A stretch of DNA of 64,000 nt from Waddliaceae bacterium (GCA_963771045.1 CAVYRW010000003.1:15-64014); one strand, 5' to 3'; counted from the stretch's first letter, positions 1 through 43,523 are shown. Notes: generated from the letters alone by a model not told the origin. Made by a program: numbers and translations.

Positions 1-372
1 GCTTGTTCTCGTTTTCAACTTCCTAATGAATTTTCATCATCTATAAGATTAAATCATCCACAAAGTTCCAGACAAGGTGAGCTATTGAACCAACATTTAC
101 GACAACTTGAAGAATATGGGATGAATGGATGGAAAAAATTAGCATCTGGTAGACATAGATATTATGGGGAAATTACACCAAGTAGAGTTTCGGGTGAAAT
201 GATAGGTCGTCGACGTGTACGTGAGTGGGATCCTACAACTGGATTTAAACGAACATGGCATGAGACATTAGATAGGGATATGAATATTAGAATCGTTAGG
301 CCTCAATTAGACAATAACGTTAAAATCCATTATCAATTTGATTGTAATGGTTGTTACCAAGGGAGATGGTAA
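1..372 (+). CDS. 3' end of an upstream RHS-family toxin gene (variable C-terminal tip; 5'-partial at window edge)
   Basis: Frame 1 is open from nt 1. Nt 1-39 (ACSRFQLPNEFSS) are identical to the conserved/variable junction of the RHS copies at 3659 and 10134. The sequence then diverges into a unique tip of about 110 aa ending at TAA 370-372. Confidence 0.75.
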   Translation, partial: ACSRFQLPNEFSSSIRLNHPQSSRQGELLNQHLRQLEEYGMNGWKKLASGRHRYYGEITPSRVSGEMIGRRRVREWDPTTGFKRTWHETLDRDMNIRIVRPQLDNNVKIHYQFDCNGCYQGRW

Positions 373-374
373 TT

Positions 375-639
375 TTGGAAATAAATCTTGAAGAGATAAA
401 AAATGCAATTTCTGATTTGATAAAATGGGAAAATAACTAGAGAAGAAATCACTGATTGGGCAGTATCATTGGAAAGATTAAATGACGAAATGATGTTGGA
501 TTTTGAAAATAATAAGGATAAAAAAGTAATATTAAATGCAATTTTTTTTCTTACAGCGGCAGATTTAAAGGTTAGTCCTAAAAATTATTTTCATCCAATG
601 GAAGATTTTGTTGAATATTTAAAAACATTAACTGAGTAA
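375..639 (+). pseudogene. putative cognate immunity gene, disrupted
   Basis: AT-rich small ORF begins 3 nt after the toxin stop, the usual immunity position. The frame from 375 stops at TAG 438-440 and reading continues in another frame over 439-639. No family recognised. Confidence 0.3.
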
Positions 640-734
640 AAAGATTGGAAAAGGGGCCGTGCCCCAGGACGCCTGCAAAGTCATCTCACAGCCTAGCCAT
701 CAGGGCTAATGTGTGCTTAGGTCTGCTTAGCTCG

Positions 735-1240
735 CCTGTGCTCATTGTTCTGACTGCAACAAAGACATTTTCATTGCTTTTTCCTGTAAAGGCCGGGGTA
801 TCTGTCCTTCCTGCAATACACGAACAATGGTTGAAACAGCTGCCCATCTTGTTGAAAATGTCATTCCCTCCATTCCCATCAGACAATTTGTAATCAGTTT
901 CCCTATGCGGACTAGGCATTACCTTCAAACGTACAAAATCCTCCAGACCGTTTTAAAGATTGTCGTCGATGAAATTCGAAAGAGGCTTATCATCTGCAGT
1001 CCGGATATCTCAGATCCTCAAATCGGAATCATTAGTTTCATCCAGTATTTTGGAAAGACACTAAATTTCCATTTTCATTTCCATCTTATTGTGGCTGACG
1101 GTCTCTTTAGCAAAGATGGCAGCGACCTTCTCTTTCACGAGGCCTCTTTGACTCCCGATTATATTGCGGATACCCAAGATTGCATAAGGAAAAGAGTGCT
1201 CAGGTATTTTGGGAGGAAGGGCTGGTTTGATAAGCAATGG
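735..1240 (+). mobile_element. IS91-family (rolling-circle Y2) transposase internal fragment, fused in frame to RHS core
   Basis: 'ACAHCSDCNKDIFIAFSCKGRGICPSCNTRTMVETAAHL...HFHLIVADGLF' is nearly identical to the transposase fragment at 24216-24835(-). It shows the zinc-binding plus Y2 transposase motif pattern of IS91/ISCR elements. Confidence 0.75.
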
Positions 1241-4006
1241 CGTGATGGGAATTGGATTGCTTCTGTTAAAATTTATGACTTTTGCAATCAGATTATCGAA
1301 GAGTATCGAGAAGATTCATCAGGGCGCATTTGGGGCAGGGTTCAAACAGAATATGATGAAACGGGGAATAAAATTTCGGAGATTGTCCATACCGATGAGG
1401 GACTCTCGATCACGAAAACGGAATATAACGTCCTGAATCAACCGACTAAAATTATCGATCCCTTAGGGCATGCGACGTATATCGATTACAATTTTGAGTT
1501 CCGCAATGAATTTGGGCAGCGCGTTTTGCAAAAAACGACTGTGGATCCCAAAGGAATTCAGACGGTTGAAACCTATGATGTTTTCGATCGCGTTGTTCGT
1601 GTTGAAAAGAAGGATCCATTTGGTCAGATGCTATCGAAAGTCGATAAGAGATTTGATTTTGTCGGAAATCTTATCCAAGAGGAGCAAACTGTCATTGCTC
1701 CCGGAAAAGACGACCGTACAATCACCAATCTTATGGAATACAACAGCGCAGATCAGCTGACTTGCCTGATAGAATCCGCAGGGTCCAATGATCAGAGAGT
1801 TACGCGTTACGAATACAATGATTTTGGAGAGAAAGAAAAAATTCTCAAGCCAAACGGAATTGTGCTGAAATATACTTACAATGCATTGGGGCTTGTTGAA
1901 AAACTTGAATCGCTCAACGCTCCCGAAGAAAGTGCCATTTGCTATGAATATACTTACGACAATCTCAAAAATCTCATCTCTGTCGTCGACCGGATCAATA
2001 ACTTTGAGACTGAAAGGCGATATAACGACCATTCAGAAATGATTTTTGAAAAACTGGGCAATGATCTTGAAATTTTCTATGAGAAGGATTATCTGGGAAG
2101 GACCGTTAAAACAACTTTTCCCTGTCAAAAAGAGGTTGGATATCTGTATCAAGGCGACCATCTTCTGCAGGCTGTCTACAAAACATCTCAAGATGAGTAT
2201 TACGCAAACTACCGATACGGCTTGTCAGGGAAACTCAAAAGGATTCACCAAATTGGTCTTGCGGGCCGAATCGGCATTAGCTATGATTTGATGGGGCGCG
2301 AAACTTCCCGCGATTCAAAATATTGGTTGCAAAACAACATTATTTATGATGAGACAGGTAACCTGATTTCGCGAGATGTTACCGACCAATGGGGTCTTAA
2401 CCACTGTGAGTATTCTTATGACAAGCTTGACCAGCTTGTTTCTGAAGAGGGTATGGCAACTCATACCTACACACACGATTCCATCAATAACCGCATTGTC
2501 TATGACGGCGGTGAGATTGCCATGAATGACTTAAATCAGGTTTTAACCGCAAACGGCAAAACCTATGCTTATGATCTTGCAGGTAATCTCATTTTGGACA
2601 ACGACTGCTCCTATTTATACGACGCTCTTGACCGTCTTATCACAGTCGTCAAGAATGAAGAGAAGTACCGCTACATCTACGATTCGCAAAACAGGCGAAT
2701 CGCCAAGCAGAAATATTGCAAGACCTTCGATGATTGGAATCTTGAAGCGACAACCAAATTCCTTTATCAGGATAGCTGCGAAGTGGGCAGTCTTGAAGGC
2801 GATGCGTTTACTTCTTTCCGCGCCCTTGGGGCCGGTCTCGGCGCAGAAATCGGAGCGGCCTTCGCTCTGGAGATCGAGGGAGTCGTTTATGCCCCCACTC
2901 ACAACCAATCGGGAAGTGTCGTTGCTCTAGTCGATGCTCAAACAGGCGATCTCGTTCACGCCGCCAGATACAGCGCCTTCGGACAAGTAGAAAAATCGCA
3001 TGGACTCTCTCCTCCCTACCAGTTTTCCAGCAAACGGCTTGATCCCGAAACAGGATGGATTTATTTCGGGCGCCGCTATTACGATTCCTCACTTGGGCGC
3101 TGGACCACTTGCGATCCGACAGGTTACTCCGACGGGTTTAACCTCTACGCTTATGTTCATAATAATCCGCTCACTCATTTCGATGAGTATGGTCTCTTTG
3201 ACGGGTATTGGGACCCAACGCCGGAGGAAATAGGCATGTATGATCCTCGAGCGCAATTCCAGGGGATGAAAAATGCAGCAGTTTATCCCTTTACCTGTGC
3301 TCGCGATTTTAATTTTAAGTCCTTAATCAACAATTCCATAGATGTTTTGTCTAATCCTCGGGTACAGGGATCTCTGCAAGCCTTTATAGGTGCTGCCGAG
3401 GCAAGTGCCGGAGGTTCGGCAATTTTCTGTTCAGGAGGACTTGCAGCTCCTGTTGGATGGCCCGTGTTTGCTCATGGCCTTGATCAATTTGTTGCCGGCA
3501 TGAACACTGCGATCACAGGAAGAGAAACAGCAACAATAACTGAACATCTTCTGCAAACAGCAGGAATGTCACCGCAAAGTGCATCCATCACAAATGATTT
3601 GTTAAGTGTTGTAGGTACGGTGGGAGCATCGTCTATAATTCAAGGAAGTAGGTTTCAGGCTTGTTCTCGTTTTCAACTTCCTAATGAATTTTCATCATTT
3701 ACAAATTTCGGTAAACAAAATAAAGTATTAAGGAAAAGATTTAGTCCTGATGAATTTGCAGATGGGGGGCATAGTGTTTTCAGAAAAAATCCAATAACTG
3801 GTAAGACAGAAAAATATCAAACATATTGGCCCCAATCTAATCCAAGAAATCCAAATCCTTGGGAATTGGGAGTACGATATGATGGTCCTATGCATCCGCA
3901 TCATCATTACAATAAAATTACTGAAATCAGAGTAGAAACTCCTCATATACATGATCCTTTATGTCCTGGGGGTGTTAGAGAACCATATTATTGGGAGGTA
4001 CCATGA
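827..4006 (+). CDS. chimeric ORF: IS91 transposase fragment (aa 1-137) fused to an N-terminally truncated RHS/YD-repeat toxin
   Basis: YD repeats ('YDETGN', 'YEYNDFGE', 'YTYDNLKN') are followed by the RHS core end 'RLDPETGWIYFGRRYYDSSLGRWTTCDP...NLYAYVHNNPLTHFDEYGL'. A conserved Gly/Ala-rich linker of about 190 aa comes next, then a variable tip from about 3680. There is no RHS N-terminal or signal region. Confidence 0.85.
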   Translation: MVETAAHLVENVIPSIPIRQFVISFPMRTRHYLQTYKILQTVLKIVVDEIRKRLIICSPDISDPQIGIISFIQYFGKTLNFHFHFHLIVADGLFSKDGSDLLFHEASLTPDYIADTQDCIRKRVLRYFGRKGWFDKQWRDGNWIASVKIYDFCNQIIEEYREDSSGRIWGRVQTEYDETGNKISEIVHTDEGLSITKTEYNVLNQPTKIIDPLGHATYIDYNFEFRNEFGQRVLQKTTVDPKGIQTVETYDVFDRVVRVEKKDPFGQMLSKVDKRFDFVGNLIQEEQTVIAPGKDDRTITNLMEYNSADQLTCLIESAGSNDQRVTRYEYNDFGEKEKILKPNGIVLKYTYNALGLVEKLESLNAPEESAICYEYTYDNLKNLISVVDRINNFETERRYNDHSEMIFEKLGNDLEIFYEKDYLGRTVKTTFPCQKEVGYLYQGDHLLQAVYKTSQDEYYANYRYGLSGKLKRIHQIGLAGRIGISYDLMGRETSRDSKYWLQNNIIYDETGNLISRDVTDQWGLNHCEYSYDKLDQLVSEEGMATHTYTHDSINNRIVYDGGEIAMNDLNQVLTANGKTYAYDLAGNLILDNDCSYLYDALDRLITVVKNEEKYRYIYDSQNRRIAKQKYCKTFDDWNLEATTKFLYQDSCEVGSLEGDAFTSFRALGAGLGAEIGAAFALEIEGVVYAPTHNQSGSVVALVDAQTGDLVHAARYSAFGQVEKSHGLSPPYQFSSKRLDPETGWIYFGRRYYDSSLGRWTTCDPTGYSDGFNLYAYVHNNPLTHFDEYGLFDGYWDPTPEEIGMYDPRAQFQGMKNAAVYPFTCARDFNFKSLINNSIDVLSNPRVQGSLQAFIGAAEASAGGSAIFCSGGLAAPVGWPVFAHGLDQFVAGMNTAITGRETATITEHLLQTAGMSPQSASITNDLLSVVGTVGASSIIQGSRFQACSRFQLPNEFSSFTNFGKQNKVLRKRFSPDEFADGGHSVFRKNPITGKTEKYQTYWPQSNPRNPNPWELGVRYDGPMHPHHHYNKITEIRVETPHIHDPLCPGGVREPYYWEVP

Positions 4007-4305
4007 CGAAAGATAATTATGATGCCATTTTGTGGTTGCAAGAATGGTATTACAGTAACTGTGATGGAGATTGGGAACATGATCAAAATATTCTTATAAC
4101 TACAATTGATAATCCTGGCTGGGCAATTACCATAAAACTCGATGGAACTAATTTGGAAAATAAACACTTTCCAAAAAAAATAATCGAAAATTCCGAATTT
4201 GACTGGTATTGCTGTAGAATTGAAAACACACAATTTCTTGGAGATGGTGGACCTTATAACTTAATGGACATGATAAAAGTTTTTAAGGATTGGGTAGAAA
4301 TGTGA
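4003..4305 (+). CDS. immunity protein, Imm53-like
   Basis: The ATG overlaps the RHS stop (ATGA at 4003-4006). The motif 'WYYSNCDGDWEHDQNILITTIDNPGW' matches my recollection of the Imm53 family signature. A paralogue lies at 11314. Confidence 0.7.
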   Translation: MTKDNYDAILWLQEWYYSNCDGDWEHDQNILITTIDNPGWAITIKLDGTNLENKHFPKKIIENSEFDWYCCRIENTQFLGDGGPYNLMDMIKVFKDWVEM

Positions 4306-4477
4306 AGTGAGGAAGGGGTGTGTTGCCTAATTCTCTAGGGAAAGTTCTGAGCAACATGCCAAGATTAAAATTGAGACTTGATAGGAGAAAAAAACAGGGG
4401 TAAACTCTTTTTTTTGCACAAAAGGAGGATACCCCATGAGCCACAGAGAAGGGGCCGAGAAAAGGGGCCGTGCCGTG

Positions 4478-4516
4478 GTGTGACACGAACCTCATAAGCT
4501 TTAGCTCGTGAGGGAA
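4478..4516 (+). mobile_element. group II intron 5' stub (first 39 nt), truncated by an IS66-like remnant
   Basis: 'GTGTGACACGAACCTCATAAGCTTTAGCTCGTGAGGGA' is identical to the start of the 550-nt copies. It is preceded by the same GGGGCCGTGCCGTG junction motif. Confidence 0.6.
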
Positions 4517-4919
4517 CGGTGAGATTGCAAGGGACGAACTGATCGAGAAGATCGAAATAGGCCCAAAAGAAGATTTGAAAGTCCTCCTCAAAGCTGGTGC
4601 AATTCACAAAGAATGTTGCAATAAAACGAGATCGACTTGCGCTGATTTTTTTGGACGGTTCGAGATGTTATGGGTATTTGCCTATCATGAGAATATCGAA
4701 CCGACTAACAATACAGCCGAGCAACGTCTTAGAGGCGGAGTCATTTGGAGGAAGCTATGCTTTGGCTCACAATCAGAAGAAGGTGAGCGATTTGTCGAAC
4801 GGGTGTTAACAGTTGGTATGACATTGAAGTTACGTGCTCAAAATTCGTTCGATTATTTTACCGAATGTTTTAAAGCATACATTCATGGCGGACAAGCGCC
4901 GCCGATATTTTCAAAATAG
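4517..4919 (+). pseudogene. IS66-family-like transposase C-terminal remnant
   Basis: 'IEPTNNTAEQRLRGGVIWRKLCFGSQSEEGERFVERVLTV' follows the TNNxAExxLR...RK..FG..S..G pattern of IS66-type DDE transposases. The N-terminal two-thirds is missing. Confidence 0.55.
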
Positions 4920-5019
4920 AAAACGGTTTCCTACGACACAAATTCACGAGGTAGTTCTCGGTTAACAAAACGTGTTAGAAGTTTACGACTCCCCCTGGGG
5001 GGACCCCCGTGAACAGATG

Positions 5020-5417
5020 CAAACATTATACCTAAAACGCATAAATTTGAAGCAGCTGCTGCAAAGAGCTTGTCTCACAGCGTTCCTTTTAGAATTGATG
5101 AAGGCATGGTGCAGCTTAATAAAGCCGATGCGGTGATTCGGGAAACATTTATGTATAATGGAAATTTTACAAGTAAATATGTTTTATCAGCAGATGAGGC
5201 GTTAGAAGCAGGTATGAAATACCTCGGTTCTGGATATAAAGAACTTGGAATTAGTGGTTCGGGAGTATATAAAAGTGCGGATAACCTTAGACAATTTCGA
5301 ATTGACACAAGATCTTTAATGGGGCAGCACAGCCCTTATAGATGCCATGTACATTACGAAATGTTTAACCCTGAGTTTGCAAAATCAACAAATAATCATG
5401 TGCTTTTCTATGAATAA
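5020..5417 (+). CDS. orphan polymorphic-toxin C-terminal domain (no RHS core attached)
   Basis: The frame opens just after the IS66 remnant and has no plausible start upstream of the domain. The 'LRQFRIDTRSLMGQHSPYRCHVHYE...NNHVLFYE' tip is followed by an overlapping small ORF, the layout of a toxin/immunity pair. Confidence 0.45.
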
Positions 5418-5646
5418 TCAAGCAATTAAAATCAATACAATTGGCAAAATACTGAGTGGAGGGTATACAGGTTGGTATGTTTATGTAGAAGATGATTCAG
5501 AATATACTGGTGGTTATTTAATTCACACATGTATTGATCCAGATATATATGATACTAGAGAAGGTTATGATAGTTGGGCCGAAGATTTATCGTCTGTTGA
5601 AAATTACTTTAAGGAAAGTAACTGGACAATCGAATGGTTGGAGTAA
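5410..5646 (+). CDS. putative immunity protein for the orphan toxin
   Basis: ATG 5410 overlaps the toxin 3' end (stop at 5415-5417). Small acidic 78-aa protein. The next junction motif and intron fragment follow directly. Confidence 0.45.
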   Translation: MNNQAIKINTIGKILSGGYTGWYVYVEDDSEYTGGYLIHTCIDPDIYDTREGYDSWAEDLSSVENYFKESNWTIEWLE

Positions 5647-5680
5647 AAGGGGCGTGGCCCTGTGAAGGGGCCGTGCCGTG

Positions 5681-6230
5681 GTGTGACACGAACCTCATAA
5701 GCTTTAGCTCGTGAGGGAGCTGTATGGAAGATAGGGGAAGACCCCCTGATTCGGCTTTTAGGAGCAGAATCAAACCACCTTAAGCTGCGAAGGCAAATTG
5801 CCGCACGTGGTGAGCGTTAAGGAAAAGGAGTGGAAATGACCATTTCAGGTGCATGTTAAGGAGATGAACGAAAGTGAACCACTGTCTGAAAATGTCGTAA
5901 GGCCCTTAGAAGTCGTCAAAACTGGAAGCATCACGGCAGCATCCAGGACTAAAGCTCAAGGGAAACCTGAGTACTGCTTGAGCGGCGGCCGGCATAGAGG
6001 TGGCATGAACTTAACATAGGCTTTCATATGGAACGTGTGAACTCGTCGTCGCAATGATAAGAGAGAAGCTCAAAGTGGAAGACCCACAAGAGCGAGAGTA
6101 TCGATGTGCGGCACGGGGGCGGAACGACTCGTAGTAGTGATGAAGTTTCTGTAATGGAGATGGAGCGAAGGGGTCGTAAAGGGGGCCGGTCCCTGCATTG
6201 TGAATCACTCTTGAATAAAATTTTGCCGAG
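5681..6230 (+). mobile_element. group II intron 5' fragment (domains I-III plus start of IV), ORF-less, copy B
   Basis: Starts with GTGTG. The loop 'AUCACGGCA' at 5930-5938 is closed by CUGGA/UCCAG, and its CACGGC is complementary to the 6 nt (GCCGTG) immediately upstream of 5681. A domain III-like 'ACTCGTAGTAGT' lies at 6127-6138. No domain V/VI or RT ORF is present. Confidence 0.65.
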
Positions 6231-7927
6231 TGGTCGCAAAGCAACATCACTTATGGTGAAACAGGAAACCTGATTTCGCGAGATGTTACCGACCAATGGG
6301 GTCTTAATCACTGTGAGTATTCTTATGACAAGCTTGACCAGCTTGTTTCAGAAGAGGGTATGGCAACCCATTCCTACACACACGATTCCATGAATAATCG
6401 CATTGTCTATGATGGCGGTGAGATTGTCATCAATGACTTAAATCAGGTTTTAACCGCGAACGGCAAAACTTATGCTTATGATCTTGCGGGTAATCTTATT
6501 TTGGACAACGAAAGCTCCTATTTATATGACGCTCTTGACCGCCTTATCACAGTCGTCAAGAAGGAAGAAAAGTACCGCTACATCTACGATTCGCAAAACA
6601 GGCGAATCGCCAAGCAGAAATATTGCAAGACAACTTCGATGATTGGAACCTTGAATCGACAACCAAATTCCTTTATCAGGATAGCTGCGAAGTAGGCAGT
6701 CTTGAAGGCGATGCGTTTACTTCTTTCCGCGCCCTTTGGGCCGGTCTCGGCGCAGAAATCGGAGCGGCCTTCGCTCTGGAGATCGAGGGAGTCGTTTATG
6801 CCCCCACTCACGACCAATCGGGAAGTGTCATTGCTCTAGTCGATGCTCAAACAGGCGATCTTGTTCACGCCGCCAGATACAGCGCCTTTGGGCAAGTAGA
6901 AAAATCGCATGGACTCTCTCCTCCCTACCAGTTTTCCAGCAAACGGCTTGATCCCGAAACAGGGTGGATTTATTTCGGGCGCCGCTATTACGATTCCTCA
7001 CTTGGGCGCTGGACCACTTGCGATCCGACAGGCTACTCCGACGGGTTCAACCTCTACGCTTATGTTCATAATAATCCGCTCACTCATTTCGATGAGTATG
7101 GTCTCTTTGACGGGTATTGGGATCCAACGCCCGAGGAAATAGGCATGTACGATCCCCGAGCGCAATTCCAGGGGATGAAAAATGCAGCAGTTTATCCCTT
7201 TACCTGTGCTCGCGATTTTAATTTTAAGTCCTTAATCAACAATTCTATAGATGTTTTGTCTAATCCTCGGGTACAGGGATCTCTGCAAGCCTTTATAGGT
7301 GCTGCCGAGGCAAGTGCCGGAGGTTCGGCAATTTTCTGTTCAGGAGGACTTGCAGCTCCTGTTGGATGGCCCGTGTTTGCTCATGGCCTTGATCAATTTG
7401 TTGCCGGCATGAACACTGCGATCACAGGAAGAGAAACAGCAACAATAACTGAACATCTTCTGCAAACAGCAGGAATGTCACCGCAAAGTGCATCCATCAC
7501 AAATGATTTGTTAAGTGTTGTAGGTACGGTGGGAGCATCGTCTATAATTCAAGGAAGTAGGTTTCAGGCTTGTTCTCGTTTTCAACTTTCTTCAAGCGCC
7601 TCTTTCTCTGCTAACAACAAAGTTCAACCAGTTCACCAAAATTCAATTGGATTATGGCCTTCTGCTACAAATAGTAATCGAGTTATTAATGGGATAGAAT
7701 ATACTAAGCATTCTTTAGAAAGGATGTCGCCGCGTGGATTGATACATCTAGATACTGAACTCTATAGTAGAGGTATTCCGCCTTCAATTGTTGAAAATGC
7801 AATAAATATTGGGACTAAAATCCCAGGAAACTCTCCAAATGAGATTGTACATATATATGAAAATGTCAGGGTAGTAACGAATCCAGAGGGATCAAAAGTG
7901 ATAACTGTAATAACTACAGGAAGGTAA
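6231..7927 (+). pseudogene. orphan RHS core-end/toxin cassette 2 (frameshifted core, intact tip)
   Basis: Homologous to RHS1 from 'WSQSNI'. A +2 frameshift sits at about 6628-6634. ORF 6623-7927 is intact through a unique tip from about 7590 ('INGIEYTKHSLERMSPRGL...GIPPSIVENAI'), possibly DUF4258-like or RNase-type; that family call has low confidence. Confidence 0.75.
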
Positions 7928-7929
7928 AA

Positions 7930-8220
7930 ATGAAAATGACTGATCATCAAAAACGCCTTTGGCAAAGTATGATAGATTTAATACAACAATATATTTATGG
8001 TGATACAAAAGATTTTTTTAAATTGGTTGGTCAACTAGAAGGAGCATTGGATGCTTCTGAGATAAAAGATCAAGAACTCATTGAGAATTGGTATGATTTT
8101 TGGACGCCTCTTGAAATTCGGCGTGCTGTGGAAGGCAATGAAATTAATCAGGAAAAAGCTATAAAAGAACTAAAAAAGATGAGAGATTTTCTAATTAAAG
8201 AAAAGGAAAATCATCTGTAA
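7930..8220 (+). CDS. putative immunity protein for cassette 2
   Basis: 96-aa ORF starting 3 nt after the toxin stop. AT-rich and followed by the junction motif. Confidence 0.55.
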   Translation: MKMTDHQKRLWQSMIDLIQQYIYGDTKDFFKLVGQLEGALDASEIKDQELIENWYDFWTPLEIRRAVEGNEINQEKAIKELKKMRDFLIKEKENHL

Positions 8221-8247
8221 GGGAAGAGGAAAAGGGGCCGTGCCCTG

Positions 8248-8797
8248 GTGTGACAAGAACCTCATAAGCTTTAGCTCTTGAGGGTGGTGTATGGAAGATA
8301 GGGGAAGACCCCCTGATTCGGCTTTTAGGAGCAGAATCAAACCACCTTAAACTGCGAAGGCAAATTGCCGCACGTGGTGAGCGTTAAGGAAAAGGAGTGG
8401 AAATGACCATTTCAGGTGCATGTTAAGGAGATGAACGAAAGTGAACCACCGTCTGAAAATGTCGTAAGGCCCTTAGAAGTCGTCAAAACTGGAAGCATCA
8501 CGGCAGCATCCAGGACTAAAGCTCAAGGGAAACCTGAGTACTGCTTGAGCGGCGGCCGGCATAGAGGTGGCATGAACTTAACATAGGCTTTCATATGGAA
8601 CGTGTGAACTCGTCGTCGCAATGATAAGAGAGAAGCTCAAAGTGGAAGACCCACAAGAGCGAGAGTATCGATGTGCGGCACGGGGGCGGAACGACTCGTA
8701 GTAGTGATGAAGTTTCTGTAATGGAGATGGAGCGAAGGGGTCGTAAAGGGGGCCGGTCCCTGCATTGTGAATCACTCTTGAATAAAATTTTGCCGAG
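8248..8797 (+). mobile_element. group II intron 5' fragment, copy C
   Basis: 550 nt, near-identical to 5681-6230, with the same 3' junction 'TTTTGCCGAG|TGGTCGCAAAGCAAC'. Confidence 0.65.
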
Positions 8798-10475
8798 TGG
8801 TCGCAAAGCAACATTATTTATGATGAGACAGGAAGTCTGATTTCGCGAGATGTTACCGACCAATGGGGTCTTAACCACTGTGAGTATTCTTATGACAAGC
8901 TTGACCAGCTTGTTTCTGAAGAGGGTATGGCAACCCATTCCTATACACACGATTCCATGAATAATCGCATTGTCTATGACGGCGGTGAGATTGCCATCAA
9001 TGACTTAAATCAGGTTTTAACCGCGAACGGCAAAACTTATGCTTATGATCTTGCGGGTAATCTTATTTTGGACAACGAAAGCTCCTATTTATATGACGCT
9101 CTTGACCGCCTTATCACAGTCGTCAAGAAGGAAGAAAAGTACCGCTACATCTACGATTCGCAAAACAGGCGAATCGCCAAGCAGAAATATTGCAAGACAA
9201 CCTCAGGTTGGAGTCTTGAGACGACAACAAAATTCCTTTATCAGGGCAGTTGCGAAGTAGGCAGTCTTGAAGGCGATGCGTTTACTTCTTTCCGCGCCCT
9301 TGGGGCCGGCCTCGGCGCAGAAATCGGAGCGGCCTTCGCTCTGGAGATCGAGGGAGTCGTTTATGCCCCCACTCACGACCAATCGGGAAGTGTCGTTGCT
9401 CTAGTCGACGCTCAAACAGGCGATCTTGTTCATGCCGCCAGATACAGCGCCTTTGGGCAAGTAGAAAAATCGCATGGACTCTCTCCTCCCTACCAGTTTT
9501 CCAGCAAACGGCTCGATCCCGAAACAGGGTGGATTTATTTCGGGCGCCGCTATTACGATTCCTCACTTGGGCGCTGGACCACTTGCGATCCGACAGGTTA
9601 CTCCGACGGCTTCAACCTCTACGCTTATGTTCATAATAATCCGCTCACTCATTTCGATGAGTATGGCCTTTTTGACGGGTATTGGGATCCAACACCCGAG
9701 GAAATAGGCATGTACGACCCCCGAGCGCAATTCCAGGGGATGAAAAATGCAGCAGTTTATCCCTTTACCTGTGCTTGCGATTTTAATTTTAAGTCCTTAA
9801 TCAACAATTCCATAGATGTTTTGTCTAATCCTCGGGTACAGGGATCTCTGCAAGCCTTTATAGGTGCTGCCGAGGCAAGTGCCGGAGGTTCGGCAATTTT
9901 CTGTTCAGGAGGACTTGCAGCTCCTGTTGGATGGCCCGTGTTTGCTCATGGCCTTGATCAATTTGTTGCCGGCATGAACACTGCGATCACAGGAAGAGAA
10001 ACAGCAACAATAACTGAACATCTTCTGCAAACAGCAGGAATGTCACCGCAAAGTGCATCCATCACAAATGATTTGTTAAGTGTTGTAGGTACGGTGGGAG
10101 CATCGTCTATAATTCAAGGAAGTAGGTTTCAGGCTTGTTCTCGTTTTCAACTTCCTAATGAATTTTCATCATTTACAAATTTCGGTAAACAAAATAAAGT
10201 ATTAAGGAAAAGATTTAGTCCTGATGAATTTGCAGATGGGGGGCATAGTGTTTTCAGAAAAAATCCAATAACTGGTAAGACAGAAAAATATCAAACATAT
10301 TGGCCCCAATCTAATCCAAGAAATCCAAATCCTTGGGAATTAGGAGTACGTTTTGATGGCTCAAGTCATTATCACAAGCATTTTAATAAAGTTACTGATA
10401 AATGGATAGAAACTCCTCATGTACATGATCCTTTCTTTCCAGGAGGCGTCAGATATCCACAAAGATGGGAGGTTC
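8798..10475 (+). CDS. orphan RHS core-end/toxin cassette 3; last 2 codons displaced by an IS1 insertion
   Basis: The open frame runs from 8786 and the track ORF spans 8927-10513. The tip is homologous to the RHS1 tip ('GGHSVFRKNPITGKTEKYQTYWPQSNP...ETPHVHDP'). The read-through tail 'RWSITCNAQFLN' is encoded by the IS end. Confidence 0.8.
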
Positions 10476-11301
10476 GGTGGTCCATAACATGTAATGCTCA
10501 ATTTTTGAATTGACATTGATTTCCTTGTGCGTTTTCCTTTGTTTCTAAAACGAATGGAGGACCCAAATGACACCCACTTGTCCTAACTGTAAATCCACCA
10601 GTATCAAAAAGAACGGCCATATTCACAGTGGAAAGCAAAATCATAGGTGTTTGTCTTGTGGAAGGCAATTCGTCATCGATCCTCAGCAAAAAATAATATC
10701 AGATGAGACAAAATCAAGAGTAAGACAGGCATTGCTTGAACGCGTTTCTCTCGAAGGTATTTGTAGAATCTTTGACGTCAGCATGCCCTGGCTTTTGAAT
10801 TTTATGAACAGAATAATCGAAGATCTTCCAGAAGATTTGAATGCGGATGTCACTGGAGAAGAAGAGTTTGAGGTAGCTATACTTGAGCTTGATGAACAGT
10901 GGAGCTATGTAGGAAAGAAAAAAAATCCAATATGGCTTTGGCTCGCATTTCATTCAGGTACACGACAGGTATTAGCTATGCATGTAGGAAAAAGAAATAA
11001 GCAAGCAGCGGAATCCTTATTAGCGAAGCTCCCCGAGGACTTAAAAAAAAAGCCGTCTTTTATACGGATAAGTTCTCAATCTACTACGAAGTCCTTCCTT
11101 GGGAACAACATCGCCCAGTCGGAAAGGAGTCAGGTAAGACAAGCTACATTGAGAGATTTAATAACACGCTCAGGCAGCGATGCTCAAGGCTAGTGAGAAA
11201 AACCCTTTCATTTTCAAAGAAAATTGAGAACCATATTGGCATGATAAAATATTTTATATGTGACTATAACCAGAGAAAAGCATTACAAGTTTAGGACTAC
11301 C
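10476..11301 (+). mobile_element. IS1-family insertion sequence (826 bp)
   Basis: Imperfect terminal IRs match 19/23: GGTGGTCCATAACATGTAATGCT versus the reverse complement GGTAGTCCTAAACTTGTAATGCT. It is flanked by an 8-bp direct repeat GGAGGTTC at 10468-10475 and 11302-11309. Confidence 0.85.
10567..11294 (+). CDS. IS1-family transposase, two frames joined at an A9 run (-1 shift needed)
   Basis: The N-terminal Zn finger is 'CPNCKSTSIKKNG...CLSCGRQF' and 'ELDEQWSYVGKKKN' resembles InsB. After A9 (11043-11051) the other frame reads 'AVFYTDKFSIYYEVLP...GKESGKTSYIERFNNTLRQRCSRLVRKTLSFSKK', which is also InsB-like. Confidence 0.8.
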
Positions 11302-11313
11302 GGAGGTTCCGTG

Positions 11314-11619
11314 ATGATAAAAGATCAGAATTTAATTTTATCGTTACAAGAGTGGTATTTTAGTAATTGCGATGGAGATTGGGAACATGATCAGAATGTA
11401 TTAATTGAAACTATTGACAATCCAGGATGGACAATTACTATTAAATTAGAAGGTACAATTTTAGAAAACCATAATTTTTTTGAAAAAAAAATAGATAGAA
11501 CTGAAAGTGATTGGTATTATTGTTGCATAGAAAATAATCAATTTAAGGGTGCCTGTGGACCGCTCAATATGCTGGAATTGATTCAAGTATTTAAAGATTT
11601 GATCGAGAAGGAAAAGTAA
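11314..11619 (+). CDS. immunity protein, Imm53-like (paralogue of 4003-4305)
   Basis: 'WYFSNCDGDWEHDQNVLIETIDNPGW'. Removing the IS restores an overlap of the toxin stop with the GTG/ATG start at 11311/11314. Confidence 0.7.
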   Translation: MIKDQNLILSLQEWYFSNCDGDWEHDQNVLIETIDNPGWTITIKLEGTILENHNFFEKKIDRTESDWYYCCIENNQFKGACGPLNMLELIQVFKDLIEKEK

Positions 11620-11657
11620 AAGGACCGAGTTAAAGACCTGAAAACAGGTCCGTGATA

Positions 11658-11706
11658 GGGCTGTGCTGTGAAAAAGGGCCGTGCTGTGAAAAAGGGCCGT
11701 GCTGTG
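11658..11706 (+). repeat. tandem copies of the junction motif (GTGAAAAAGGGCCGTGCT x2 plus a partial copy)
   Basis: Direct reading: 'GGGCTGTGCT GTGAAAAAGGGCCGTGCT GTGAAAAAGGGCCGTGCT GTG', immediately 5' of the intron start. Confidence 0.8.
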
Positions 11707-12256
11707 GTGTGACACGAACCTCATAAGCTTTAGCTCGTGAGGGAGCTGTATGGAAGATAGGGGAAGACCCCCTGATTCGGCTTTCAGGAGCAGAATCAAA
11801 CCACCTTAAGCTGCGAAGGCAAATTGCCGCACGTGGTGAGCGTTAAGGAAAAGGAGTGGAAATGACCATTTCAGGTGCATGTTAAGGAGATGAACGAAAG
11901 TGAACCACTGTATGAAAATGTCGTAAGGCCCTTAGAAGTCGTCAAAACTGGAAGCATCACGGCAGCATCCAGGACTAAAGCTCAAGGGAAACCTGAGTAC
12001 TGCTTGAGCGGCGGCCGGCATAGAGGTGGCATGAACTTAACATAGGCTTTCATATGGAACGTGTGAACTCGTCGTCGCAATGATAAGAGAGAAGCTCAAA
12101 GTGGAAGACCCACAAGAGCGAGAGTATCGATGTGCGGCACGGGGGCGGAACGACTCGTAGTAGTGATGAAGTTTCTGTAATGGAGATGGAGCGAAGGGGT
12201 CGTAAAGGGGGCCGGTCCCTGCATTGTGAATCACTCTTGAATAAAATTTTGCCGAG
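11707..12256 (+). mobile_element. group II intron 5' fragment, copy D
   Basis: 550 nt, near-identical to copies B and C. The upstream 6 nt GCTGTG still pair with CACGGC through one G-U. Confidence 0.65.
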
Positions 12257-13841
12257 TGGTCGCAAAGCAACATCACTTATGGCGAAACAGGAAATCTGAT
12301 TTCGCGAGATGTTACCGACCAATGGGGTCTTAATCACTGTGAGTATTCTTATGACAAGCTTGACCAGCTTGCTTCAGAAGAGGGTATGGCAACCCATTCC
12401 TACACACACGATTCCATCAATAATCGCATTGTCTATGACGGCGGTGAGATTGCCATCAATGACTTAAATCAGGTTTTAATCGCAAACGGCAAAACTTATG
12501 CTTATGATCTTGCGGGTAATCTTATTTTGGATAACGACAAGCTCCTATTTATATGACGCTCTTGACCGCCTTATCACAGTCGTCAAGAATGAAGAAAAGT
12601 ACCGCTACATCTATGATTCGCAAAACAGGCGAATCGTCAAGCAGAAATATTGCAAGACCTTCGATGATTGGAATCTTGAAGCGACAACCAAATTCCTTTA
12701 TCAGGATAGCTGCGAAGTAGGCAGTCTTGAAGGCGATGCGTTTACTTCTTTCCGCGCCCTTGGGGCCGGTCTCGGCGCAGAAATCGGAGCGGCCTTCGCT
12801 CTGGAGATCGAGGGAGTCGTTTATGCCCCCGCTCACAACCAATCGGGAAGTGTCATTGCTTTAGTGGATGCTCAAACAGGCGATTTCGTTCACGCTGCCA
12901 GATACAGCGCCTTCGGACAAGTTGAAAAATCGCATGGACTCTCCCCTCCCTACCAGTTTTCCAGCAAACGGCTTGATCCCGAAACGGGATGGATTTATTT
13001 CGGGCGCCGCTATTACGATTCCTCACTTGGACGCTGGACCACTTGCGATCCGACAGGTTACTCCGACGGCTTCAACCTCTACGCTTATGTTCACAATAAT
13101 CCGCTCACTCATTTCGATGAGTATGGCCTCTTTGACGGGTATTGGGATCCAACGCCTGAAGAAAGCGCAATGTTTAATGCTGAAGCGCAGCTGCAAGGGA
13201 TGAAATTTGGTGCATTGCAAGCACGAGATTTCTTTTTTGGTTGTACATATGAACTTGGAAACAGCTTGCATAGTGAATTCTGGGGTGATCCTAATGATCC
13301 AAATAGAGTGATTCCTATATCTCAAAGAAGCTTTACGGAAATCGGTTTACTTGCCGGCGGCACAGCCATCGAACTTTCCGCTGGAAAGGTTATCGGAGTT
13401 TGTGGAAGAGGAGTCAAATTCTTAGGAAAAGGGGCTTTAAAAATACCATATGTGAGAAAGACTGCTCAAGTTGCCATGAGAACTTTTGACGCTTTATGGA
13501 AAACAAGAAAGGCGGCAAAAGCTGTTCAAAAAGCAAAATTACCCAAAACACTCAGATTGAATGGGTTAAATTCCTTACCAAATTTCAAATATGATTTCGA
13601 TAGTCTTTCAAAAGCTGGAAAAGTTCCAGACCGTAATGGATTAACAAGAGCTGGAAGAGCACTAGATAAACATGGTAGTCGCAAAGGTAGTGTTTTCCCT
13701 AAGGCGACCGGAAATTCACATGCAAAAAATGCTCAAGGACAATATCATCTGGATGATATACTTACCAATCCTAATACTACGTTTTTGCCAAATAAATTTG
13801 ATGGCTTTGATTTTTTTGCTCTAAATAGAAAAAATGCTTGA
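12257..13841 (+). pseudogene. orphan RHS core-end/toxin cassette 4 (frameshifted core, intact tip)
   Basis: A +1 frameshift sits at about 12530-12545. ORF 12498-13841 is intact. It diverges from the other copies right after 'DEYGLFDGYWDPTPEE' (about 13163) into a unique tip of about 225 aa ('LTRAGRALDKHGSRKGSVFPKATGN'). Confidence 0.75.
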
Positions 13842-13878
13842 TTAATGAACGATAATTTATTAGGAGGTTTCTGGAACC

Positions 13879-14127
13879 ATGAAAAATAATAAATTTCGAT
13901 GTGTTATCTCAGGAGATTTGGATTATGAAGATCTCGTTGCTGACATATATTACGAAAATGAGTTTGTTGCGATGCTTAAGCAAGAACAGGGTTTCCAAAA
14001 TCTAGAAATAGAGATTCATCCTCCAAAGAATAGAGAATATTGGAATTTTTACTGGTCTGAGTTTAGCGAAGTAATAGAAAAAGCCAAGCAAAGACTTTGG
14101 GATTTGCGAAAGATTGACAATAGTTGA
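13879..14127 (+). CDS. putative immunity protein for cassette 4
   Basis: 82-aa ORF 37 nt downstream of the toxin stop, with a 'GGAGG' RBS. Confidence 0.5.
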   Translation: MKNNKFRCVISGDLDYEDLVADIYYENEFVAMLKQEQGFQNLEIEIHPPKNREYWNFYWSEFSEVIEKAKQRLWDLRKIDNS

Positions 14128-14161
14128 GTTTATCAGTCGTGGATTTTTATACCTTGTCTTT

Positions 14162-14292
14162 TGATAGGGCCTGATAGGGCCGTGCCTTGCATTGTGCATA
14201 ACTTTTCTTATGCACTTAGAAAGATTATTGCTTTAATGCAGCAAATATTTATGCACAATGCGCGGCACGGCCCCTTTACTCGGCCCCTTTAC
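14162..14292. repeat. palindromic element with about 40-bp inverted arms carrying the junction motif (intron-less state)
   Basis: The left arm is TGATAGGGCCTGATAGGGCCGTGCCTTGCATTGTGCATAA. The right arm in reverse complement is GTAAAGGGGCCGAGTAAAGGGGCCGTGCCGCGCATTGTGCATAA. There is also an inner hairpin GTGCATAA/TTATGCAC. Confidence 0.8.
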
Positions 14293-14569
14293 TTTCGCAA
14301 ACTACCGCTATGATAGGACAGGGAAACTCAAAAGGATTCACCAAATTGGTCTTGCGGGCCGAATCGGCATTAGCTATGATTTGATGGGGCGCGAAACTTC
14401 CCGCGATTCAAAATATTGGTCGCAAAGCAACATTATTTATGATGAAACAGGAAACCTCGTATCCTGCGACATTACCGACCAATGGGGTCTTAACCACTGT
14501 GAGTATTCTTATGACAAGCTTGACCAGATTGCTTCTGAAGAGAGTATGGCAACCCATTTTGGATCTTGA
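14293..14569 (+). pseudogene. terminal RHS core fragment (homologous to about 2206-2470 of RHS1)
   Basis: 'ANYRYDRTGKLKRIHQIGLAGRIGISYDLMGRETSRDSKYWSQSNIIYDETGNL...MATH', after which homology ends. Confidence 0.8.
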
Positions 14570-14689
14570 CGCTTTTTTCGATGTAGTCTTCATAGAGAAT
14601 TACGCAACACACCCGCAGCAATCTGGGTCTAAGAAATACACTTTTGTATATAATAATTAAGAAATATCTCAGTTATAAAGGAGATTAAT

Positions 14690-15823
14690 TTGAAAATTGT
14701 TGTTGCAGGCGGCGGGGCTGCCGGGTTTTTTGCGGCCATTGCAGCAAAGGAGACCTATCCGCACGCTGCAGTTATTCTACTTGAACGCGCAGCTAAGCTT
14801 CTAAGCAAAGTCCGTGTTTCCGGTGGTGGAAGATGCAACGTCACCCATGCTTGTTTCGATCCAAAAGAACTTGTTAAAAATTATCCGAGAGGTTCTAAAG
14901 AACTCTTAGGGCCATTTCACCGTTTTCAACCCGCAGACACAGTACAATGGTTTTCAGACCGGGGCGTCGAGCTAAAGACTGAAGATGATGGGCGGATGTT
15001 TCCCGTCACCGATTCCTCAGAGACCATTATTGACTGCTTGCTAGCGGAAGCCAATCGACTTGGGGTTATCATCCGGCTGCAAACGAAATTCAGCCTAGAC
15101 GAAATGGAAGCTGACCGCGTGATCCTTGCCACAGGCAGCGCTAAAGACGGCTTTGACATCGCTGCAAAGCTCGGACACACAATTCAACCGCCGGTCCCGT
15201 CGCTTTTCACCTTTAATATTCCTAATTTTCAGCTAGAATCAATAGCAGGGGTTTCCGTCGACAGCGTCCGTTTGAGTCTAGAAGGAAATAAACTCTTCCA
15301 AGAAGGTTCCATGCTCATTACGCATTGGGGATTTAGCGGTCCTGCCTCCTTGAAACTGTCTGCTTTCGGGGCGCGCTGCCTTGCTGAAAAAAATTATGAG
15401 ATTGGACTTTGCGTAGACTGGCTTCCCAATTTTTCAGTTGATGAATTAATGGCGCTTTTGGCGCTTGAAAATTCAACAAAAAAGCTGGGAAATATCAAAT
15501 CAATACCGCTGCCGAAAAGACTGTGGAAGCTTCTGTGCGGAAGGGAAAATCAGCTTTTAAGCGGCATGAGCAAACCTGCAATGCGCAAACTATTCGAAAA
15601 GCTGAAGTCTGATCGGTACCAAGTAAAGGGGAAAACAACGAATAAAGAAGAGTTTGTCACTTGCGGCGGTGTGACATTATCCGAGATTAATTTTAAAACT
15701 ATGGAGAGTAAAATCTATCCAGGACTCTATTTCTGCGGAGAAATCCTTGATATCGATGGGATTACCGGCGGCTTTAACTTCCAAAACGCCTGGACTACAG
15801 GATGGATCGCCGGGACAGCTTAG
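14690..15823 (+). CDS. NAD(P)/FAD-dependent oxidoreductase, HI0933/YhiN (BaiN-like) family
   Basis: The N-terminal 'VVAGGGAAGFFAAIAA' dinucleotide fold, 'RVSGGGRCNVTH' and the C-terminal 'GEILDIDGITGGFNFQ' are typical of the family. Confidence 0.85.
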   Translation: MKIVVAGGGAAGFFAAIAAKETYPHAAVILLERAAKLLSKVRVSGGGRCNVTHACFDPKELVKNYPRGSKELLGPFHRFQPADTVQWFSDRGVELKTEDDGRMFPVTDSSETIIDCLLAEANRLGVIIRLQTKFSLDEMEADRVILATGSAKDGFDIAAKLGHTIQPPVPSLFTFNIPNFQLESIAGVSVDSVRLSLEGNKLFQEGSMLITHWGFSGPASLKLSAFGARCLAEKNYEIGLCVDWLPNFSVDELMALLALENSTKKLGNIKSIPLPKRLWKLLCGRENQLLSGMSKPAMRKLFEKLKSDRYQVKGKTTNKEEFVTCGGVTLSEINFKTMESKIYPGLYFCGEILDIDGITGGFNFQNAWTTGWIAGTA

Positions 15824-24036: not shown

Positions 24037-24215
24037 CGTCATTTAAACCCATCTGGAAAAATTATTCCAGATTCTTTAGAGATCGAGAGCCCCTTTGCCT
24101 TAGCCCAGCGATCGGAGAGAAGTTCGTACAGCTTGTTTGCGGGGTGATCCATTAAACTGCGCATGACATCTTCAAGATATTCGTGGGGATTAATGCCAAG
24201 TTCACGGCATGTTTG
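24037..24215 (-). pseudogene. IS66-family transposase C-terminal remnant with terminus
   Basis: The reverse strand reads 'CRELGINPHEYLEDVMRSLMDHPANKLYELLSDRW', the IS66 C-terminal element pattern, and ends with GTAAGCG. Confidence 0.6.
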
Positions 24216-24835
24216 AATAAGGGAGTCAATGAGGTCTCGTGAAAGAGAAGGTCGCTGCCATCTTTACTAAAGAGACCATCAGCCACAATAAGATGGAAAT
24301 GAGGGTGGAAATTTAGTGTCTTTCCGAAATACTGGATGAAGCTGATGATGCCGATTTGCAGATCTGGGATATTTGGACCACATATAATGAGTCTTTTTCG
24401 AATTTCATCAACGACGATCTTTAAAATGGATTGAAGAATTTTGTACGTTTGAAGGTAACACCTAATCCGCAAAGGAAAACTGATCACAAATTGCCTGATG
24501 GGAATGGACGGAACGACATTTTCAACAAGGTGGGCTGCTGTTTCAACCATTGTTCGTGTGTTGCAGGATGGGCAGATACCTCGGCCTTTACAGGAAAAAG
24601 CAATGAAAATGTCTTTGTTGCAGTCAGCACAATGAGCACAGGCGAATCCATTAGCTAATATGCCGAATTCCAAATACTTATGGAATTCCCTGTCTATGTA
24701 TTTGGGAATGGGGTTTTCAGAGTTTTTGTACCATGTCTTGTAGTGCCTTTTTATGACGTCAAAAAGAACCGTTTTCTCAGGTTTACGAGGCCGATAGATC
24801 ACTTCTGATTTTTTAGGACAGCAGATAGAAGACAT
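24216..24835 (-). pseudogene. IS91-family transposase, N-terminal ~205 aa only
   Basis: Track ORF 24152-24835. 'CAHCADCNKDIFIAFSCKGRGICPSCNTRTMVETAAHLVENV...HPHFHLIVADGLF' is truncated after 'SLTP' by the IS66 remnant. Confidence 0.8.
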
Positions 24836-42106: not shown

Positions 42107-42115
42107 AGAATAATT

Positions 42116-42688
42116 ATGAGAAAATTACATAGATATATTCTAGATTTTGAAAGAGCATTTAAATACCTTCAAGTTGAAATAAATGAATCCTTATCTAAAC
42201 ATTCAGGATTTCTCAAAAGCAACTTTTGGAATGAGGGGGTTTTCTACACGGAATTGCCGAAAAATGCTTATATTGATAGAATTTACGACTTTGATTTGAG
42301 TGGAATCCTTCCAGCGGAAGATCTCATTGAAGAAAAACAAATTCTTCCAGATGGTGAAATTTACATACCAAAGTGCATTTTTACAACAAAACAAGAGCTA
42401 AAAAAATTTATTCATGAATTTTTAAAAGAAAGCGAACAGCATCGCTGCTTTTTTTGGCGTGATAATAAAAAGAAAATGCTTACCAATGCGTCTACATTAC
42501 AAGATATTTCAAAAAATTTATTTATTATAGAGCCTAGGCAACCGTTTGTTCTCCTTAAAAGTGATCAGACTAAGGATGAAAGCCATGATGATGATTTCTA
42601 TAATTTTGAATACTTTATATTTCCTGCATATAATGGTGAAGCTTGTATTTTTTGGACGAAAAAATCCAATGTTATAGGTAATTGTTAA
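42116..42688 (+). CDS. immunity-like protein 1 (RHS2 locus)
   Basis: Starts 10 nt after the RHS2 stop. Paralogous to the next gene (N-terminal 'R.ILDFE', C-terminal 'AYNGEACIFW'). Confidence 0.55.
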   Translation: MRKLHRYILDFERAFKYLQVEINESLSKHSGFLKSNFWNEGVFYTELPKNAYIDRIYDFDLSGILPAEDLIEEKQILPDGEIYIPKCIFTTKQELKKFIHEFLKESEQHRCFFWRDNKKKMLTNASTLQDISKNLFIIEPRQPFVLLKSDQTKDESHDDDFYNFEYFIFPAYNGEACIFWTKKSNVIGNC

Positions 42689-43365: not shown

Positions 43366-43413
43366 TGTGGGAAAATTCTCCTCAAAGGCTTTTCTTTATA
43401 ACATGGTAAATAA

Positions 43414-43454
43414 TTATGCACAATGCACAGCACGGCCCCATATCGGCCCCATAT
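43414..43454. repeat. solo arm of the 14162-14292 palindromic element
   Basis: 'TTATGCACAATGCACAGCACGGCCCCATATCGGCCCCATAT' compared with 14249-14292. Confidence 0.7.
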
Positions 43455-43523
43455 TTGATTGGAATTGGTCAAAAGAAAAACCACGTCAACCTGGTCGACC
43501 ACTTGAACCGGGAGAATAATCAA

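Follow-up and report, generated by a model that had tools for sequence, protein, structure and literature searches.

How does the 5′ part of a group II intron come to stand at one cassette boundary after another in an array of toxin and immunity genes? The question is raised by a 64,000-nt stretch of a Waddliaceae bacterium (GCA_963771045.1, CAVYRW010000003.1:15-64014), here called the window, whose coordinates are counted from its first letter. The locus is an orphan-cassette array of rhs, a YD-repeat polymorphic toxin gene, in a Waddliaceae chlamydia, and it holds three repeat units, each composed of an intron 5′ piece, an RHS core fragment, a toxin and an immunity gene: unit 2 (5646-8220), unit 3 (8217-11619) and unit 4 (11654-14127). 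Our analysis favours, with a probability of about 0.7, an ordinary rhs orphan-cassette array whose boundary palindrome drew in an intron and insertion sequence (IS) elements, the decayed intron then spreading with the cassettes by homologous recombination.

Three repeat units share one boundary

All three units carry the same 25-mer across the point at which RHS sequence begins, TTTTGCCGAG joined to TGGTCGCAAAGCAAC; the 25-mer TTTTGCCGAGTGGTCGCAAAGCAAC occurs exactly three times in the window, at 6221, 8788 and 12247. Pairwise identity between the units is 95.5–97.7% across the 1479–1924 nt that they share, which fits the proposal, made in a preliminary description of this DNA, that ~1.8 kb of near-identical sequence provides a homology scaffold. 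The RHS portion of each unit begins at the equivalent of position 2324 in the long rhs open reading frame (ORF) at 827-4006. RHS core fragments are mutually 93–97% identical, and the longest copy in the window is itself 5′-truncated by IS91; ORF 827-4006 is thus a long orphan, a transposase::RHS chimera, and not the main rhs gene. A longer main gene was seen only in a related metagenome-assembled genome (MAG), where it reaches 373 nt farther upstream than the core of ORF 827-4006.

The Pfam families RHS_repeat and TEN_YD-shell match 827-4006, 6623-7927, 8927-10513 and 12498-13841. Toxin tips diverge after PLTHFDEYGL or after a common pre-toxin segment, and a small immunity ORF then follows each. 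Only unit 3 holds an intact orphan ORF (528 aa, from an internal ATG), units 2 and 4 being frameshifted in the core by +2 and +1 nt, and the stretch 4516-5646 is without an RHS core. Bases 1-50 resemble 3659-3707; the array extends past the window start. Look-ups by exact protein sequence returned no record for the window proteins 5410-5646, 7930-8220, 8927-10513, 13879-14127 and 48051-49385, nor for P0001, P0006 and P0124.

A truncated group II intron behind its predicted homing site

The intron piece is recognised in each unit by Rfam RF01999 (group II intron D1–D4) at 5733-5850, 8300-8417 and 11759-11876, with 90–94 bits against a gathering score of 36. Each copy starts with GTGTGAC (at 5681, 8248 and 11707), of which GTGTG fits the GUGYG 5′ end. 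Homology to full-length introns stops at 6177, 8744 and 12203, that is, 53 nt short of RHS: every relative aligns only up to window 6177 (GGAGCGAAGGGGTCGT), beyond which the relatives' domain IV (DIV) enters a reverse transcriptase (RT) ORF unrelated to 6178-6230. The full-length relatives, all metagenomic, are 84–86% identical over domains I–III (DI–DIII), encode an RVT_1+GIIM (RT and maturase) ORF of ~420 aa without an endonuclease domain, and possess domains V and VI (DV/DVI). Neither feature was found in the window, where RF00029 gave no DV/DVI match even at E ≤ 1 and no RT ORF is present anywhere. Since DV/DVI are absent, the intron fragment cannot splice, and because an in-frame TAA lies 12 nt before the RHS start (6231) in all three units, it is not translated into the orphan either. 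Genome and metagenome scans returned no full-length copy of exactly this intron, the best matches being relatives at 84–90% identity, and two further loci (L002 and L010) hold only a scrap of domain III. A fourth, further truncated copy, consisting of the motif and 38 nt of intron, lies at 4462-4515; in the MAG the intron runs on at the same place.

The "junction motif" of the preliminary description would, from its base pairing, be the homing site of this intron. Intron-binding site 1 (IBS1), TGCCGTG at 5674-5680, pairs perfectly over 7 bp with exon-binding site 1 (EBS1), CACGGCA at 5932-5938, and IBS2, AGGGGCC or AAGGGCC, pairs over 7 bp with EBS2, GGCCCTT at 5901-5907. Relatives show matching changes on both sides (GACCC/GGGTC and GAAGCU/GGCUUU in L007, AACCC/GGGTT in L011, CAGGCC/GGCCTG in L006), and the 5′ exon of a related intron in L005 belongs to the same motif family, with two copies of CACAAGGGGCCGGGCTC. 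The 5′-exon motif recurs at 8217-8247 in unit 3 and, as a triple repeat, at 11654-11706 in unit 4. The unit 4 motif is a threefold tandem repeat of 17–18 nt, one GATAGGGCTGTGCTGTG followed by two copies of AAAAAGGGCCGTGCTGTG, other boundaries having two copies. The intron inserts inside the left (5′) arm of a palindrome, and the outer part of that arm, AAGGGGCCG-TGCCGTG, appears to serve a group II intron lineage as homing site by pairing with its EBS2 and EBS1.

Several of the relatives are arranged in ways worth recording. L005 (1409-1793, ERZ1066138 NODE-6191) contains two different group II introns of 74% identity in head-to-head orientation, each using one strand of a common 52-nt tandem motif (CACAAGGGGCCGGGCTC twice) as its 5′ exon; the second has the EBS1 AAGGGG, which pairs with CCCCTT. 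In L008 (2122-4697) and L012 (584-3161) a full-length relative lies ~330 nt downstream of a tmRNA gene; the same intron recurs in L007, where the proximal 5′ exon is identical and the sequence farther upstream is different. L009 (84-694, minus strand) carries an apparently ORF-less group II intron of ~0.7 kb, its RF01999 DI–III and RF00029 DV/DVI matches being only ~400 nt apart.

RHS appears to be fused to a palindromic element

The 53 nt that touch RHS (6178-6230) read AAAGGGGGCCGGTCCCTGCATTGTGAATCACTCTTGAATAAAATTTTGCCGAG, a segment that can also be written as AAAGGGGGCCGGTCCCTGCATTGTGAATCAC...GCCGAG or AAAGGGGGCCGG...GCCGAG, and an 18-nt copy of the motif sits between the intron end and CATTGTG. 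Bases 6166-6212 align to the arms of a palindromic element, including its typical tandem outer motif and its inner CATTGTG(C/A)AT, with a score reached by 0 of 500 shuffles. On this alignment the sequence fused to RHS would be element arm rather than intron; the preliminary description was right about the three units and misread the anatomy of their junction.

The element is a multi-copy short repeat with long inverted arms, ~105–130 nt in length; one example reads GGGGCCGNNCCNTGCATTGTGCATAA. Four full copies were found (14164-14293 and three in L014, a paralogous array from the metagenome of the MAG that is 78–85% identical) together with one solo arm (43408-43450), after which there is no RHS fragment. 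In the available sequence every copy lies at an rhs cassette boundary. At each boundary in the window the element-arm outer motif stands directly after the immunity gene, and what follows the motif is variable: an IS91 fragment (from 652), 38 nt of intron and then IS66 (from 4478), intron DI–DIII with a second arm (three times), or the rest of an intact element (from 14164). Inspected element flanks contain no clear target-site duplications, with one nested arrangement in L014, and among the window ORFs scanned there is no integrase or recombinase, only housekeeping genes and IS transposases.

Boundaries marked by the element also occur without the intron, in the window's last unit, in L014 and in L015, a contig of 3 kb from the sample that also yielded L014. 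The last unit has a ~130-nt palindrome (14164-14293; DNA fold z = −7.2), no intron, and an RHS fragment directly after it. This much had been described correctly. Its RHS piece starts 120–124 nt upstream of the junction position, not 117, and its proposed status as the ancestral state is not borne out: it differs from every other copy at 14–17 of 142 sites (10–12%), and the element interior is unlike 6196-6230. The last unit would better be taken as a paralogous example of the intron-free boundary type, not demonstrably an ancestor. In L014 there is no intron at all, the arms are nested or tandem, and each orphan RHS fragment directly abuts a copy of the palindromic element, at the equivalents of 2466 and 2316. 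L015 reads ...TGAAGGGGCCGTTCCGTA CATTGTGAATCACTCTTGAATAAAATTTTGCCGAG joined to TGGTCGCAAAGCAAC..., in the form ...CATTGTGAATCAC...GCCGAG/TGGTCGC, and so has the identical element::RHS junction without an intron, which shows the RHS junction to be independent of the intron. A 62-nt IS66 end fragment lies to the left of its element, which undermines L015 as a candidate for the ancestral state.

RHS breakpoints cluster at 2316-2324 and 2464-2466 (L014 5036 and 6901), within 2–8 nt at boundaries of two paralogous arrays that otherwise look independent, a pattern that may go back to ancient events common to both or to hot spots. When the window junction and the L014 6901 junction were compared for one shared ancient event, similarity on the left side was weak.

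Cassettes differ around the same boundary in a second genome

The same composite is present in the Waddliaceae MAG MFD02923.bin.2.37, on contig_16801 (L003/L004). There the array begins with the main rhs gene and its immunity gene; next come motif, intron and arm::RHS, with the identical junction and 300 nt deleted, and behind them toxin A and Imm53, which match window 2690-4515 at 98% identity; a third block is an intron copy that breaks off at the equivalent of 6104, where it runs into the 3′ part of imm53′; a fourth is another full composite, here with an RNase toxin and barstar behind it; and the last is another intron start at the contig end. Immunity genes of the MAG include barstar and a CPCC ORF. 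On contig_16815 (L001) the composite breaks off at the equivalent of 6210, where an immunity C gene in inverted orientation follows. Both intron-linked orphans of the MAG (L004 8689/8688 and 11729/11728) share the 300-nt RHS deletion (window 6297-6596), with CAA microhomology at the joint, so they are copies of one another made after the deletion.

The identical junction and identical intron 3′ end in three window copies and two MAG copies show a single origin of the composite boundary, which was propagated with different toxin and immunity tips, as had been suggested beforehand. Around this common boundary the number, content and order of cassettes differ between window and MAG, so the comparison with a related genome that the preliminary description called for gives a picture fitting recombination on shared homology. 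Toxin A and Imm53, for example, follow a long core fused to IS91 in the window; in the MAG they follow the intron composite.

Origin of the composite boundary

We envisage a native boundary that would have read immunity gene, palindromic element, 5′-truncated RHS fragment, with the element acting as an insertion hot spot in the way that repetitive extragenic palindromic (REP) sequences do for IS elements. One such boundary would have gained the intron by ordinary homing. The intron would then have lost everything past domain III, probably through short-homology recombination of GCGAAGGGGTCGT with the similar outer motif of the adjacent arm, a route suggested by the close resemblance of GCGAAGGGGTCGT, at the DIII/DIV border (6162-6177), to the element outer motif GCGAAGGAGTCGC (L014 6815-6828). 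The remnant composite would consist of the 5′ exon, intron DI–DIII, and an element arm plus 35 nt joined to RHS at 2324, and would have been carried along with the cassettes during duplication, exchange and deletion by way of the 1.5–1.9 kb of shared intron, arm and RHS core. The intron fragment would be a passenger in this process, adding ~0.55 kb of recombination homology between orphans. Orphan use would be as in other Rhs systems, the core fragment recombining with an expressed rhs gene, for which there is published precedent (PMC3967940, PMC2935791, PMC3150448). Unit 3 might also be expressed internally, as a toxin-antitoxin-like module (PMC7043789). As a separate matter, GCGAAGGGGTCGT could also pair with the intron's own EBS2.

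Several observations weigh against this account. The intron and arm copies are 3–10 times less diverged than the adjacent RHS core (0.4–1.5% versus 3.7–5.9% over the next 900 nt; Fisher p 4e-3 to 2e-5), a difference that a pure passenger model could explain only through gene conversion or RHS mosaicism; mosaic blocks in the RHS core do fit an import of diversity from a wider rhs pool, and there may instead be selection on the intron fragment. As the scans found no full-length copy of exactly this intron, 6178-6230 might conceivably belong to a DIV peculiar to this lineage, with an element inserted in it. L015 may be an ancestral site that the intron never entered, or one from which it was later lost, so that the polarity is presumptive, and in both assemblies the array is found at the end of a contig.

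Alternative explanations

On the model of the preliminary description, one deletion would have joined intron domain IV straight to RHS 2324 and taken out the 3′ half of the intron together with what was left of the palindrome and ~120 nt of RHS; the last unit would show the state before insertion and deletion. In its favour, the junction is identical in all copies; the last unit does have the element and then RHS from 120–124 nt farther upstream and shares the TGGTCGCAAAGCAAC variant, and the 18-nt spacing of GTCGT and CATTGT is the same as in the relatives' DIV. What speaks against it is that the relatives share nothing with the window past 6177, that the RHS partner is element sequence by the significant alignment of 6166-6212 to element arms, that L015 has the same junction with no intron and intron-free boundaries are the rule in L014, and that the last unit is 10–12% diverged from all copies with a different element interior; we regard such a deletion as improbable. 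The template switch raised in the same description, in which a cDNA begun on rhs mRNA jumps to reverse-spliced intron RNA and is integrated at the homing site, formally predicts the observed order of 5′ exon, intron 5′ part, RHS 3′ part, toxin and immunity gene. It is scarcely credible once the junctions are examined, as RHS is joined to the element and not to the intron, in a junction that also exists intron-free, and what lies downstream of every immunity gene is a complete 5′-exon-type motif, not an mRNA 3′ end with the 3′ exon CATTGTG; the other truncations (at IS66, in the imm53 fusion, in the inversion) are ordinary DNA rearrangements. An assembly artefact, whether a collapsed, expanded or chimeric repeat, might be suspected from the position of the array at or near the contig end in both assemblies and from the 1–2-nt frameshifts in units 2 and 4, which resemble those that sequencing errors make. 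That the three units differ in their toxins and immunity genes and in many substitutions peculiar to one unit, and that the same composite boundary recurs on three contigs of an independent assembly, makes an artefact very unlikely.

Two other readings give one of the components an active part. The palindromic element might itself build the array, either as a mobile miniature inverted-repeat transposable element (MITE) inserting into rhs cores and afterwards supplying homology that is portable, or as the site of a dedicated recombinase like the integron attC, with the intron as one of several elements attracted to it. It directly abuts orphan RHS 5′ ends at no fewer than four (at least 4) different core positions in two paralogous arrays, leaves a solo arm at the end of the second rhs locus, is nested or in tandem in L014, and is associated with the breakpoint clusters described above; the window ORFs scanned offer no integrase or recombinase for it, clear target-site duplications were not seen, and the RHS junction cuts some of the right arms short, a pattern more in keeping with illegitimate recombination than with transposition. 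We consider this reading possible, if unlikely, and hold as doubtful its more specific form, in which the element would be an attC-like device that builds and reshuffles arrays by capturing rhs 3′ pieces, and one group II intron lineage would be adapted to it in the manner of IIC-attC introns to attC. The intron fragment, for its part, might be functional, as a promoter, leader or RNA structure for expression of the orphan toxin and immunity genes, or as the 5′ half of a trans-splicing intron. It is more conserved than the adjacent coding RHS core, it breaks at domain IV, where, as is generally known, trans-spliced organelle introns are split, and in unit 3 GAAGAGGG stands before the internal ATG of the intact ORF. 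Internal promoters drive the expression of orphans in Salmonella (PMC7043789). A scan of 3900-14700 for promoters and terminators nevertheless gave no signal above shuffled sequence, with no promoter-like site in 6100-6360; frameshifts interrupt units 2 and 4, the 5′ exon does not code for protein, and derivatives truncated elsewhere persist. Trans-splicing was discarded as a candidate, the intron 3′ half being undetected in the window at E ≤ 1 and no DV/DVI partner being present there or in the scanned MAG loci L001 and L003. A functional fragment therefore seems to us decidedly improbable.

Features of the window

Table 1. Coordinates of the features of the rhs array and of the solo element arm in the window.
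Feature	Position	Strand	Details
Upstream cassette end	1-639	+	Toxin tip ORF 85-372; small putative immunity ORF 469-639
Boundary motif AGGGGCCGTGCC	652-663	+	Then IS91/Y2-transposase fragment 732-1156
Chimeric ORF: IS91 transposase fragment, RHS core (from ~1227), toxin A	827-4006	+	Pfam RHS_repeat, Y2_Tnp
Imm53, immunity for toxin A	4003-4305	+	Pfam Imm53, E = 9e-33; identical protein encoded in MAG
Tandem motif (5′ exon 4446-4477) and first 38 nt of intron (4478-4515)	4446-4515	+	Broken by IS66 fragment
IS66 transposase C-terminal fragment (ORF 4575-4919), toxin B tip (5070-5417), putative immunity B (5410-5646)	4516-5646	+	
Tandem GGGGCCG-type motif, intron 5′ exon	5646-5680	+	IBS2 5665-5672; IBS1 5674-5680
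Group II intron DI–DIII, 497 nt	5681-6177	+	Rfam RF01999; alignment to full-length relatives; EBS2 5901-5907; EBS1 5932-5938
Palindromic-element arm copy fused to RHS	6178-6230	+	Unoccupied degenerate homing site (6178-6195/6196) and 18 nt
RHS core 3′ part (matches 2324-3679) and toxin C	6231-7927	+	+2-nt frameshift near 6632
Putative immunity C	7930-8220	+	Recurs inverted in MAG locus L001
Intron DI–DIII, copy 2	8248-8744	+	
Element-arm copy 2	8745-8797	+	
RHS core 3′ part and toxin A′	8798-10513	+	Intact ORF 8927-10513 from internal ATG
IS1 transposase fragment	10567-11193	+	Pfam DDE_Tnp_IS1; between toxin A′ and Imm53′; absent from homologous L015 cassette
Imm53′ immunity gene	11314-11619	+	Pfam Imm53, E = 7e-33
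Intron DI–DIII, copy 3	11707-12203	+	
Element-arm copy 3	12204-12256	+	
RHS core 3′ part and toxin D	12257-13841	+	+1-nt frameshift near 12539
Putative immunity D	13879-14127	+	
Intact palindromic element	14164-14293	.	Both arms with near-cognate unoccupied homing sites
Terminal RHS fragment (matches 2200-2464)	14293-14557	+	Abuts housekeeping DNA
Solo arm of palindromic element	43408-43450	-	Just downstream of second, unrelated rhs locus (37184-42106 and two small ORFs)

Two observations outside the repeat units complete the description. The IS91/Y2 fragment has a partial inverted copy at 24645-24221 that is 89% identical (regions 732-1226 and 24152-24835). A second full-length rhs gene (region 37184-43985) encodes 1640 aa with a weak Ntox37 match below the Pfam cut-off, is unrelated to the array at the DNA level, and is followed by two paralogous small ORFs.

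Relation to known systems

The dead intron can be read as a natural barcode of array assembly and reshuffling: because its truncation point and the element::RHS junction are both unique events, every cassette that carries them must derive from one ancestor by copying or recombination, and comparison of the two genomes shows toxin and immunity cassettes swapped between boundary contexts. The finding also suggests that a palindromic repeat is what really organises the rhs orphan boundaries in this chlamydial lineage, and that a family of group II introns homes specifically to it. Should it be true that the repeat drives cassette capture, it would be a new diversification mechanism for polymorphic toxins in an obligate intracellular bacterium. 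The preliminary description knew of no Rhs array with intron fragments; full-text literature searches likewise found no description of intron fragments in Rhs arrays, nor of group II introns in Waddlia.

Class IIC introns sit behind terminators and in integron attC sites and have a short IBS1 without EBS2. Like such introns that home to palindromic or structured DNA, the lineage described here has an RT and maturase without an endonuclease domain and a repeated palindromic intergenic target, and the closest solved homologs of the relatives' intron-encoded protein are IIC RTs. Unlike them, it apparently uses both EBS1 and EBS2 (7+7 bp) and inserts inside the 5′ arm rather than after a stem-loop, and the window copies are dead; judged by these features the lineage would fail the IIC definition, and the similarity of its protein to IIC RTs is not enough to assign it to a class. 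Bacterial genomes commonly contain truncated group II introns, according to the surveys of Dai and Zimmerly. The window copies resemble these in being a non-autonomous 5′ piece with no DV/DVI or RT gene, and differ from them in occurring at least four times per array within a larger host repeat unit and in being conserved in two genomes.

Palindromic repeats of the REP and MITE type are hot spots for insertion sequences (PMC1525189), and REP-associated group II intron copies are tabulated for P. putida in the same paper (PMC1525189 table). The boundary repeat similarly is a short palindrome that attracts intron, IS91 and IS66 fragments, with the difference that here every copy in the available sequence lies at an rhs cassette boundary. 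In contrast to integrons, no integrase is adjacent among the ORFs scanned.

Arrays of orphan rhs-CT/rhsI modules have been described by Jackson 2009 (PMC2935791), Poole 2011 (PMC3150448) and Koskiniemi 2014 (PMC3967940), and Rhs loci were noted earlier in Waddlia (PMC3150448). The present array shares with them variable tips each with a small immunity gene, a homologous core 3′ piece that allows recombination, and interspersed IS fragments. It departs from them in its dedicated palindromic boundary repeat and the truncated group II intron at three boundaries, in a core-end motif that is PLTHFDEYGL rather than PxxxxDPxGL, and in its setting, an obligate intracellular chlamydial host with no full-length main gene of the array in the window. 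It is a member of the Rhs orphan-array kind, to which the dead group II intron fragment and the palindromic boundary repeat are unusual additions.

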